Part shown: positions 50,770-57,897 of the stretch, in pieces | Numbering within the stretch: position 1 is the first letter of the stretch | Layout: each line of letters begins with the position of its first letter | Program-made: the position numbers and the translations under genes | The notes under the pieces: model-generated | Databases searched by the model: none | What the model saw: the letters and a program-made list of their open reading frames with translations, nothing else | Told to the model about the DNA's origin: nothing | NCBI GenBank assembly: GCA_951406725.2 | Contig: OX597815.1 | Coordinates: forward strand, 69,750,001-69,814,000 | Origin: Octopus vulgaris | Taxonomy: Eukaryota | Reading direction: 5' to 3' | DNA length: 64,000 nucleotides

Positions 50770-51055
50770 TGTGAAGGTGTGTGGCCTAGTGGTTAGGGGC
50801 GTTGCACTCACGATCGTAAGGTCGTGGTTTCGATTCACGGACATGTCCGTGCGTTGTGTTCTTCAATAAAACATTTCATTTCCTCTTTTCCAGTCTGTTC
50901 AACTGTAAATAAGTTCCAGCAATAGCCGTGATGTTAACCCTGTGACGAGCCGACGTCCCGTTCGAGTGCGGCGGGGGAGTGTTGTAATCTTAATTACATA
51001 TACGTTATCGAAACTGGGTTAATCTCCGGATTTATGAGTCCTAGGACTCAAGACA
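50770..51055 (+). mobile_element. SINE family B variant
   Basis: GTGGCCTAGTGGTTAGGG...GGTTTCGATTCACGG. Confidence 0.75.
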
Positions 51056-52117: not shown

Positions 52118-52120
<3 letters not shown>

Positions 52121-52462
52121 AGGCGCAATGGCCCAGTGGTTAGTGCAGCGGACTTGCGGTCAAAGGATCGCGGTTTCGATTCCCAGACCGGGCATTGTGA
52201 GTGTTTATTGAGCGAAAACACTTAAAGCTCTACGAGGCTCTGGCATGGGGTGGTGGCGAACCCTGTTATATTCTTTCATTCTTTTTCTTCCTGTATTGCA
52301 AAAGTCCGACCTTGTCATACGCTGAATCTCCCCGAGAATTACGTTAAGGGTATGCGTGTCTGTGGAGTGCTCAGCCACTTGCACGTTAATTTCACGAACA
52401 GGCTGTTCAGTTGATCGGTTCATCTGGAACCCTCGTCGTGGTAACCGACAGAGTGCCACGAC
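52118..52462 (+). mobile_element. tRNA(Arg)-like SINE (family B), full length
   Basis: AGGAGGCGCAATGGCCCAGTGGTTAG...GGTTTCGATTCCCAGACC...CGTCGTGGTAACCGACAGAGTGCCAC. Confidence 0.9.
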
Positions 52463-52635: not shown

Positions 52636-53614
52636 TAATTTTAATCCAAACGGGAAAACAAAAAAACAACAACAATGGAACAATTACAGTATTATTATTA
52701 ATAGGCGCTCAGGAAATGGAAGCAGGAAGGTATGACGTTTCGAGCGGAGCTCTTCGTCGGAAACATAAAGAAGGAAGAGAGAGGAAAGAAAGATCCCAAA
52801 GCGGGCAACAGGGATAGAGAAAAAAAAAGACTGGTGTTTACGAGTTACACATGGTGAAAGGCGGAAGTTTACGATAACAAGAGCAAAGTAGGTTTTTAAA
52901 GCCAAAGAGTGGAGACAAGGTTGGTAACGCAACAGATGTGTGTGTATGTGTGAGTGTGTGCGTGTGCGTGTGTGTATGTGTGTGTGTGAGGCGAGATAAA
53001 AAAACAAAAAATATATGTATGTGTTAGTGTGTGCGTCTGTGTGTAGGCGTGTGAGGTAGGGCGAGACAGTGGTAGGCAAGCAGACAGTGGTCAGTAGTAA
53101 GAAAAAGAAGGAAAGAGGAAGGGAGGGAGGGGAAGGGGTGGGGGCGTATGTAGCGTGCCAGCGTGTGTTGAGTAGTAGTGTGTGTGTGTGTCCAGTGTCG
53201 TGGTAGTATTAATGGCGAGTAGATTGAATGTGTGTAAGAGTAATGTATATATTTAAGCAATGTGTGTATATGTGTGCGCGTGTGTGTAACAAAAAAAGGG
53301 GGGTTAAGGAAAAAGGACTACAGCTGAGGGGAAGATGGAAGAGTGGTCCCGCGGAGACGGGCGTGGGAAAACCCAACGACAAGCGACGGTCCCAGGAACG
53401 AGCGGGAGGTCTCGTCGGGTCCAAGAGCGAGGTGCATGCGGCGCGTATGCGTGCGCGAACCGGCGCAAGCGCGTGTGTGCGCGCGCCTGCGAGTATGCGC
53501 GTAAGTATGTATGTGTGTGGATGTGTGAGTGTGTCTGTGTGTATGTCTGTGTGTCAGTGTGTCCGATGAATGTATGTGAGTATGTGTGTATATATGTGTG
53601 TGCATAGATGTATG

Positions 53615-53661
<47 letters not shown>

Positions 53662-55957
53662 GTGGGTGTGTGGAAGTGTGTGTATGTGCATGTGTGTGCG
53701 CGTACATACAGGTGTGTGAGTGAGTGTGTGTGTGTGTGTATGTATGTGTGAGTGTGTATGTATGTGTGTGTAAGATGCATGTATGTGTATGGGTGTATGT
53801 ATGTGTGTGTGTATGTATGTATGTGTACGTGCGTGTGTGTTTGTGTATGCGTGTAGGTGTGCGCGTGTGCATGCATGCATGCATGTGCGTATGTGTGTGT
53901 GTGTGCATGTGTGTGGGTATATATGTATGTGCGTATATGTGTGTGTATGTGCGTACATGTGTGTGTGTGTATGCATGTGTGTGTATGTAGGTGTGTAGGC
54001 GTGTGTGTATAGGTGTATGTATGTAAGTATGTATGGGTGTGTCCGTGTATGTGTGTGTATGTATTTGTGTGTATGTAGGTGTGTGGGCGTGTGTATATGT
54101 GTGTATGTAGGTGTGTGGGCGTGTGTATATAGGTGTATGTATGTATGTCTGGGTGTGTCCGTGCATGTTTGTGTGTGTGTGTGTATGCATGTGTATGTAG
54201 GTGTGTGTGTACGTGTGTAATGTATGTGTGTATGCGTGTGTGTGCGTGTGTATGCGTGCGTGTGTGTATGTAGGTGCGTGTGTATGTGTGTGGGAGTGTA
54301 GGTGTGTGTGTGCGTGTGCGTGTTTATGTTGGTGTGTGCGTATGTGAGTGTGAGTGTATGGGTGTTTGTCATGCATGTGTGTGCGCGTGCAGGTGAGTGT
54401 GTGTGTAAGTATGTGTGTGTGTATGTTTGTGTGAGTGTGTATGTGTGTATGTCTGTGTGTATGTATGTGCGTATAGGAGTATGTAGGTATGTGTGTGTGT
54501 ATGTGTATGGGTGTATGTATGTATGTGTGTGTGCATGTGTATAAGTATATGTGTGTGTGCGTATGTGTGTGTATGTGTATGTGTGTGTGTGCATGTATGT
54601 GTGTATGTATGTGTGTAGGCGTGTGTGTGTAGATGTATGTATGTATGGGTGTATGTCTGTGTGTGTTTGTGTGTGTGTGTAGGTAGGTGTGTGTGTCTGA
54701 GTGAGGGTATGGCTGTGTAGGTGTGTGTGTGTGTATGAATGTAAGTGTGTGTGTGTACAAGTGTATGTAGGTGTGTGTGTGTGTGTATGTGTACGTGTGC
54801 GTGTGTATGTGTGTGTGTGTATGCGTGTGAGTGTGAGTGTATGGGTGTATGTCTGTGTGTGTGTATGTCTGAAGTAGGTATGTGTGTGTATGTATGTATG
54901 TATGTGTGTGTGCGGGTATATGTGTGTATGTGTGTGTGTGAGTAGGTGTGCGTGTATGTATGTGGGTAGGGATGCATGCGAGTGTGTGGGTATGTATGCA
55001 TACATACGCACGCGCACATCCGAAGCAAGCCCACACACACGAAGCGCGCTCACGCACACAACGCACAAGCAGTACAACGCAAGCCCAAGGGGCCGACCAA
55101 GCCCCCAGCGCGCGCCAAGGCGCGCGAGCGCAAAGGCTCTCGAACGCCCCGCTACGCGGGAACCGAGGATCCATCAGCCAAAACCGGAAAGCAGAAAAGA
55201 GGGGGGCTGCCTGGATGCAAAAAGGTGTATGTGTGTGTGCATTCAGTGTAAGGGTGTGCATGTGTGGGTATGTACGTATGTGTGTGCCTACATGTATGTG
55301 TGCATGTGTGTGTGTGTGAAGTATGTACGTGCGGTGTGTGTGTGTGTGTGTGTGTGTTTGTATGTGCGTATGTATGTGTGTATGTATGTGTGTGTGTATG
55401 TATGTCTGTGTGTGTGTGTGTGTGTGTAAGTGTGTGTGTGTGTGTGTATGTATGTATGTGTGTGTGTATGTGCATGTTGGTTTGTATGTTAGTGTGTGTA
55501 TGTGCATGTTGGTTTGTATGTTAGTGTGTGCATGTATGTCTATAAGTGTGTGTGATTAAATGTGTGAATGTATGTACGTAGATGGGGCTACGTATGTGTG
55601 TGTGTGAACAGGCGTGTGGGAGGTAGGTGGGTGGGTGTGTGTGTGTGGTGTATCCGGGAAAAAAAAAAAAAGGGGATCTCAAGAGGAGGGGGCTGTGTTA
55701 AGTCCGTGTGGGGTGGTAGTTTGTAGGGTGAAGATGTAGCGTTGCTCCAAGTGGAGCCTGGAAAGTGGGCGACCATTGTGGGGGGCGAGACCAAACACTG
55801 AGATGTCATCTAGGGAATGGCCGGCCGAGCGGAAGTGGCGTGCGACGGGAGAAAAAGAGTGTAGGCGAACGTCCCTCAAGTGTTCAGTGAAACGGTCGGA
55901 CAACCGGCGTCCCGTCTGTCCTACATACAGCATCCCGCATAGGTTGCATTTAATGCA

Positions 55958-56006
<49 letters not shown>

Positions 56007-56215
56007 TAATCCAAACAAGAAAACAAAAAAAAACACAACAACGCAAGGATGTGGAACAAATAAAGTATTATTGGACGCTCAGGAAAGAAGGGAATAAGGA
56101 GGGTTTAACGTTTCGAGCGGAGCTCTTCGTCGGAAACATAGGAGAAGGAAGATCCCGAGAAGGGAAGACAGAGGTGGTACTCACGAGGTCACATACTGAA
56201 AGACGGAAGTAGTAA
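52636..56215 (-). mobile_element. Penelope-like element remnant: pLTR end, (TA)n, GIY-YIG fragment, ~2.7 kb CA-rich tract, second pLTR end
   Basis: Homologous hammerhead-bearing termini at 56000-56210 and 52640-52860 in the same orientation as the GIY-YIG ORF; junctions lie in (TA)n. Confidence 0.7.
55679..55963 (-). pseudogene. PLE GIY-YIG endonuclease domain (5'-truncated)
   Basis: IYCIKCNLCGMLYVGQTGRRLSDRFTEHLRDV...VARHFRSAGHS...LEQRYIFTLQTTTPHGLN: GIY/YIG equivalents, CxxC, catalytic R, E and terminal GLN. Confidence 0.88.
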
Positions 56216-56217
56216 GG

Positions 56218-56279
<62 letters not shown>

Positions 56280-57466: not shown

Positions 57467-57897
57467 GGCGCAGGAGTGGCTGAGTGGTAAGTAGCTTGCT
57501 TACCAACCACATGGTTCCGGGTTCAGTCCCACAGCGTGGCACCTTGAGCAAGTGTCTTCTACTAGAGCCTCGGGCTGACCAAAGCCTTGTGAGTGGATTT
57601 GGTAGATGGTAACTGGAAGAAGTCCGTCTCATACATAAATATATGTGTTTGTGTGCGTGCGTGTGTGTGTGTGTGTGTATATGTTTGTGTGTCTGTGTTT
57701 GCCCCCCACACACACACACAACATCGCTTGACAACCGATGCTGGTGTGTTTACGTCCTCGTAACTTAGCGGTTCGGCAAAAGAGACCGATAGAATAAATA
57801 CTAGGCTTACAAAGAATAAGTCCTGGGGTCGATTTGCTCGCGGTGCTCCAGCATGGCCACAGTCAAATTACTAAAACAAGTAAAAGAATAAAAGAAT
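57467..57897 (+). mobile_element. Family A CORE-type SINE, full length
   Basis: GGCGCAGGAGTGGCTGAGTGGTAAG (A-box), GGTTCAGTCCC (B-box), CACCTTGAGCAAGTGTCTTC, and tail. Confidence 0.92.

Follow-up and report, generated by a model that had tools for sequence, protein, structure and literature searches.

The window analysed here, a stretch of 64,000 nucleotides of Octopus vulgaris DNA, contains a 5′-truncated copy of a Penelope-like element (PLE), and we can confirm the minus-strand PLE assignment made for this locus in an earlier note on the same sequence. The upstream end of the copy at 52638-55958 comprises the last ~92 codons of the endonuclease, followed by a long 3′ UTR. The features are listed below, with coordinates of the window.

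52638..55958, minus strand: the whole 5′-truncated PLE copy, with (TA)n on both sides
52730..52767, minus strand: hammerhead-like motif near the 3′ end of the element, found by eye; no Rfam call
53297..53513, minus strand: arm 2 (3′ arm) of a predicted long-range duplex, from folding
53341..53430, minus strand: unique-sequence part of arm 2 and core of the finding, from an A-rich ancestral segment of which about half the A has been lost
53431..53502, minus strand: repeat part of arm 2, a spacer of (CA)n type that has become (CG)-rich where pairing with arm 1 is predicted
53514..54998, minus strand: G-poor, CA-rich spacer of ~1.5 kb, the loop of the putative fold-back
54999..55212, minus strand: arm 1 (5′ arm; the other patch of the earlier note), a duplicate, in inverted orientation, of the ancestral region of arm 2, carrying A>G changes
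55679..55958, minus strand: 3′ end of the PLE open reading frame, with the endonuclease C-terminus and stop; the 5′ truncation lies here, at a (TA)n run

Full copies of the element have a single frame of 1008-1009 codons with a reverse transcriptase, a C-x4-C-x2-C linker and an endonuclease, in which a motif recognised by eye is what we take to be GIY-YIG. The 3′ end of the element is repeated upstream of the frame, and this is a tandem pseudo-LTR arrangement. At L068 and L069 (G000:C10:97.81-97.82 Mb) the young family is present as three full-length units in tandem, with a period of ~6.17 kb. The frame has 483 homologues; homologues bear PF00078, and many PF01541. Compared with Pfam directly, the frame gave a weak RVT_1 match below the cut-off, and the endonuclease piece gave no match. 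The (TA)n flanks of the copy correspond to a microsatellite target. Judged by its sequence, an element with a reverse transcriptase and C-terminal GIY-YIG endonuclease in one frame, pseudo-LTRs and microsatellite targets fits an EN+ PLE. The linker preceding the endonuclease is of the CX2-5CxxC form by which the Neptune/Nematis clade is defined in PMC8557442.

On the sense strand the ~3 kb 3′ UTR is rich in CA and poor in G save for two islands, one of them the patch that is our subject and the other at 55.0-55.2 kb. Throughout the element, the coding frame included, the sense strand has much C and little G (L061:800-3820), and this bias is strong. A coding role for the patch was considered and rejected; the frames that cross the UTR consist of His/Thr microsatellite and are not constant from one copy to another. 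An Rfam search of the element returned only microsatellite-driven miRNA matches, all below cut-off. The hammerhead-like motif at 52730-52767 and another at 56108-56140 have a variant core with C at U4, in both lineages, and neither has an Rfam call; the hammerhead consensus has U at this position. Beside the element, the segments at 50775-50850, 52118-52200 and 57468-57560 were picked out by eye as what are presumably tRNA-like SINE heads.

Composition of the patch and its spread through the family

The earlier note had described a T-poor patch, and its counts are reproduced: there are 8 T in the 90 nt at 53341-53430, of which six precede C, two precede G and none precede A or T. When this 90-nt window, which was chosen after the fact, was shuffled 20,000 times, TA and TT were both missing in 3.9% of cases, and were missing together with the presence of at least six TC in 0.085%. 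The context rule for residual T holds in 53341-53430 and fails in 53431-53500, where 9 of the 11 T precede G and two precede A. The segment 53401-53500 has the highest CpG content of any 100-nt window in the 64 kb (19 CpG). The Cs of the patch are not an assembly error, because contigs from 4/4 public runs support them; aligned to the stretch, these show C>T within the patch only at 53456 (3% threshold).

The same observations had been read as hypermutation of this PLE copy, i.e. as a single insertion made from hyper-edited RNA, and low T, high CpG and the context of the residual T within the window speak for such an event. Yet the patch is 98-100% identical in 40/40 scored paralogues (950 candidates), its 24-nt junction motif has 790 matches in the genome, and both of the young subfamilies carry both islands, with the patch fixed in each. 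An event confined to this copy is thereby refuted, and we attach practically no probability to it. The G-rich patch is an old, lineage-wide change. Aligning paralogues to find the unedited state in today's family, as the earlier note had suggested, yields paralogues that carry the patch. A genome search for the junction motif without G gave two matches, neither of them unedited; one is a copy that does bear G but has undergone two G>T changes, and the other is a truncation junction.

Older relatives and the A>G burst

Direct asymmetric alignment of the window core to distant UTRs gave no match, and intermediates were needed. Just outside the copy, in a (TA)n run at 56003-56220, lies a short 3′-end fragment of an older sister PLE lineage (2422 genome candidates). 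This fragment led to the sister lineage, which is 88-89% identical in nucleotide sequence to today's family in the frame, and through the endonuclease of the sister lineage several intermediates were reached in turn. In a second young PLE family (L123-L132, e.g. G000:C18:50455200-50464700), 71% identical in the frame, the 3′ UTR is short and the hammerhead-like motif is of another form; a distant PLE family (71% nucleotide identity) has no such islands.

The tree of these copies (44 rows, 12 with under half of the columns filled; midpoint root, with the distant family on one side) takes the form of a ladder, in which the basal copies have one island or none. Copies with two islands group in a single clade of 21 rows (support 97/90) on a stem of 0.006 changes per column, nested within the one-arm copies and ending in today's family. 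Two rows of this clade, L255 and L256 (C4:89.25 Mb; C11:59.82 Mb), have neither arm, as if the whole fold-back had been deleted, and are uninformative; arm 1 is missing from one row, L221. At L207 (G000:C4:101287500-101293200, minus strand; sense ~2630-2900) additional TG-rich stretches lie in inverted orientation behind arm 2, which looks like an inversion of later date.

The island under study (arm 2) can be aligned with the one island of the basal copies, and the island at 55.0-55.2 kb (arm 1) with the reverse complement of that basal island. On these alignments, the two islands are the two arms of one inverted repeat. An A-rich single island with no inverted copy within 1.5 kb was found at 10/30 loci in one set and at 30/30 A-type loci in another, the two sets overlapping. 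In the nested clade the inverted duplicate sits 0.8-1.6 kb upstream of the original segment. Since no unedited inverted repeat was found in the 30 loci examined out of 119 candidates, we infer that intermediate.

Changes were scored against the consensus of the one-arm family in the six nearest complete two-arm copies. On the sense strand, 31-39 of the 72-79 A in the arms have become G (41-51%) in 6/6 copies, against 5-22 of 271-324 (2-8%) in the flanks, with p of 1e-15 to 1e-24 per copy; as the six copies share ancestry, these counts represent about one event, and not six. The one-arm control is almost free of A>G at 30/30 A-type loci. Other transitions in the arms number 4-15 of 179-188, and T>C in arm 1 is 0-2 of 28-30. 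Transversions relative to the ancestor (12-18 in arm 1, 5-16 in arm 2) indicate that the arms evolve fast. In a table of 134 paired positions, A-U has become G-U at 39 (24 in arm 1 and 15 in arm 2) and has been kept at 28, while G-C has become G-U at one. Because the partner arm keeps its T, the direction is from A to G, and no root is required to establish it. At 27/37 converted sites, A is kept in no near copy.

The 5′-neighbour order of ADAR is U>A>C>G, and the earlier note had invoked it in full. The disfavour of 5′ G is borne out, with A changed at 2/7 sites after G and at 35/49 otherwise (p 0.04); by neighbour the conversions are U 8/10, A 10/13, C 17/26 and G 2/7. These are small samples from a span trimmed after the fact, running from the first to the last converted site, and without trimming 5′ U falls to 8/18. 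On the 3′ side, in the same trimmed span, A before U was changed at 8/17 sites compared with 23/26 before C or G (p 0.005). Many converted sites are CA to CG, which is the context of CpG decay reversed; sites that are not CpG (AAG, AAT and TAT) were changed too. The strand carrying A>G is that of the open reading frame, and since the copies are 5′-truncated the changed strand is the one that is transcribed and reverse-transcribed. Genes with an adenosine-deaminase domain (PF02137) are present at four loci of the host, untyped among ADAR, ADAD and ADAT. Both arms bear an A>G burst of the ADAR type, in agreement with the editing that the earlier note proposed for its two patches. ADAR is described as disfavouring 5′ G in PMC8586724 and PMC2873906.

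Pairing of the arms and later change

The two arms of today's copy are predicted still to pair. In-register pairing of 55212-54999 with 53297-53513 gives 153 predicted pairs and -216 kcal/mol, compared with -142 ± 8 kcal/mol for shuffled sequences, none of which was as good (0/100); the longest helix between the arms is 13 bp. Each patch folded alone gives z ~ -1, which is not significant. The suggestion that two discrete windows ~1.5 kb apart mark segments of double-stranded RNA thus finds agreement in a predicted duplex between the arms of one fold-back. The minimum-energy fold of the whole UTR retains only 37 pairs between arm 1 and arm 2.

Selection keeping the duplex is suggested by the fate of T. 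In folds taken from intermediate copies, T opposite A was changed at 3-6/30-36 positions, compared with 14-17/34-37 for T opposite G or unpaired (p 0.003-0.1). A compensation test on ancestral coordinates gave 17/37 against 9/28 (p 0.31), and comparisons between near copies and the window gave p of 0.38-0.82, none of them significant. Helix tables drawn from the fold of the window itself were set aside as circular.

The two halves of arm 2 differ in how well they fit the original description. The earlier note had reconstructed the ancestor of the core by converting C back to T, which implies 32 A on the sense strand. The ancestor had 16 in 92 nt, falling to 8-9 after the burst and 8 now; the ancestral core therefore had ~16 T rather than 32, most of its Cs are ancestral, and the reconstruction fails. 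Of the 23 alignable sense Gs of arm 2, the ancestor had G at 13, A at six and T at four, in an alignment that is uncertain at this distance, and of 16 edit-derived Gs in arm 2 only four persist in the window's own copy. The best-fitting part of the earlier description is the repeat, read there as (GT)n turned into (GC)n. Here, of 80 positions, G occupies 0-4 in one-arm ancestors and 20 in the window, rising stepwise through the copies from 0-4 in the one-arm copies to 7-12, 12-14, 16-19 and 20-21.

After the burst, A>G occurred at 11-12/61 sites in the arms compared with 19-28 of 673-742 in the flanks, and at 7/45 on shared states, while T>C in the arms (25/87) was at least as frequent. Editing in later rounds is plausible at most. 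Ongoing editing was sought in RNA-type contigs (4/4), whose RNA status is a guess and which drop rare variants; apart from a subfamily variant present in the genome they contain no new T>C in the patch, and the hyper-edited RNA anticipated by the earlier note did not appear among them.

Origin of the patch and comparison with known systems

The patch forms the 3′ arm of an inverted repeat within the 3′ UTR of this high-copy element. An old A>G burst marks both arms, probably the work of ADAR on the folded RNA and subsequently fixed by the element's own reverse transcription. The starting point would be the single A-rich segment seen in the basal relatives, of which an inverted duplicate would have arisen 0.8-1.6 kb upstream, where the nested clade has it. 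The transcript could then fold into a duplex of ~200 bp, within which roughly half the A across the two arms, and not in the flanks, became G on the sense strand, presumably through ADAR. Retrotransposition of the edited RNA in the germ line would have produced a master element, from which the descendants, including today's family with its intact frames of 1008-1009 codons, would all have inherited the G-rich arms that they carry. More A>G and T>C may have accumulated later, with the arms staying complementary.

Could structure selection acting on ordinary mutation have produced this pattern? After the inversion only pair-preserving changes would survive, leaving G-U pairs with no editing enzyme involved. 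The arms are indeed still complementary, and the lower rate of change of T opposite A (p 0.003-0.1) gives later evolution a filtered appearance. Yet a change from G-C to G-U preserves pairing equally well and occurred once against 39 changes of A-U to G-U; moreover the burst falls on a stem of 0.006 changes per column, and a twenty-fold rise in rate is not produced by purifying selection. We consider this explanation improbable. The same pair table largely refutes the reverse polarity, in which a GC-rich ancestor lost G in the one-arm family by CpG decay. Such decay is brought to mind by the many sites that are CA in one group and CG in the other, and by the age of the one-arm copies. But A is the consensus of the one-arm family and not scattered decay, the partner arm has T and not C opposite these sites (T>C in arm 1 is 0-2 of 28-30), the non-CpG sites AAG, AAT and TAT changed as well, and the one-arm copies are basal; we find this polarity scarcely credible.

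The enzyme cannot be named from sequence alone, and this leaves some room for another adenine deaminase, for ADAR on the DNA strand of sense polarity (its action on DNA is discussed in PMC10209271) or for a hairpin-specific error of reverse transcriptase. However, a deaminase acting on first-strand cDNA should leave T>C on the sense strand, where A>G is seen in both arms, and the avoidance of 5′ G fits ADAR, so we judge this group of explanations very unlikely. ADAR editing of the folded RNA is the reading that we prefer. A more far-reaching version of it, in which one edited fold-back founded the lineage and repeated editing with repair of G-U to G-C led to an A-poor, editing-resistant long-range duplex that selection in the active family maintains for a function in the 3′ UTR, is possible, but we hold it to be doubtful.

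RNA editing is normally not inherited, yet here the ladder of copies in one genome records the states before and after, from a one-arm unedited ancestor through a two-arm clade with half of the duplex A as G to a young family of ~790 copies. Editing of retrotransposon RNA is often assumed to be a defence; it would appear that it can also enter the germ line and be tolerated there, serving as a source of mutation for the element. If the ADAR reading holds, the arms are a dated and site-resolved record of germ-line ADAR preference, and a burst in both arms would show that two segments paired in vivo across a loop on the kilobase scale.

How does this compare with known systems? In the literature covered, no case of a Penelope element with ADAR or A-to-I editing was found. 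ADAR-type A>G hypermutation is known in the avian retroviruses RAV-1 (Felder 1994) and avian leukosis virus (Hajjar and Linial 1995), both cited in PMC8586724. There, as here, clustered A>G arose in RNA that was later reverse-transcribed into DNA; unlike those cases, the octopus element is a non-viral Penelope-like retrotransposon, in which the change is old, has become fixed in the germ line and was passed on to a lineage that expanded to ~790 copies with open frames. The ‘DNA editing’ of LTR retrotransposons by APOBEC, G>A on the cDNA in vertebrates and reported as absent from 19 invertebrate genomes (PMC4866542), likewise leaves a strand-specific cluster made by a host deaminase in genomic copies of a retroelement and read against an unedited relative. 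Here, by contrast, the change is A>G, is confined to the two arms of a fold-back and is found in an invertebrate genome. A-to-I hyper-editing of inverted repeats in transcripts gives clusters of A>G in palindromic regions with 5′ G avoided (PMC2873906), and in cephalopods A-to-I editing of RNA targets repeats and 3′ UTRs (PMC9068888). The clusters and the avoidance of 5′ G are shared with hyper-editing, which is limited to RNA, whereas the changes described here are heritable and in the DNA of the element. Finally, the element resembles the EN+ PLEs of the Neptune/Nematis type (PMC8557442; PMC4209133) in its single frame of reverse transcriptase and C-terminal endonuclease, the CX2-5CxxC linker, the tandem pseudo-LTRs, the microsatellite targets and a hammerhead-like motif (by eye here). 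It differs in its CA-rich 3′ UTR of 3 kb with an internal, putatively edited inverted repeat, which finds no mention in the descriptions consulted.
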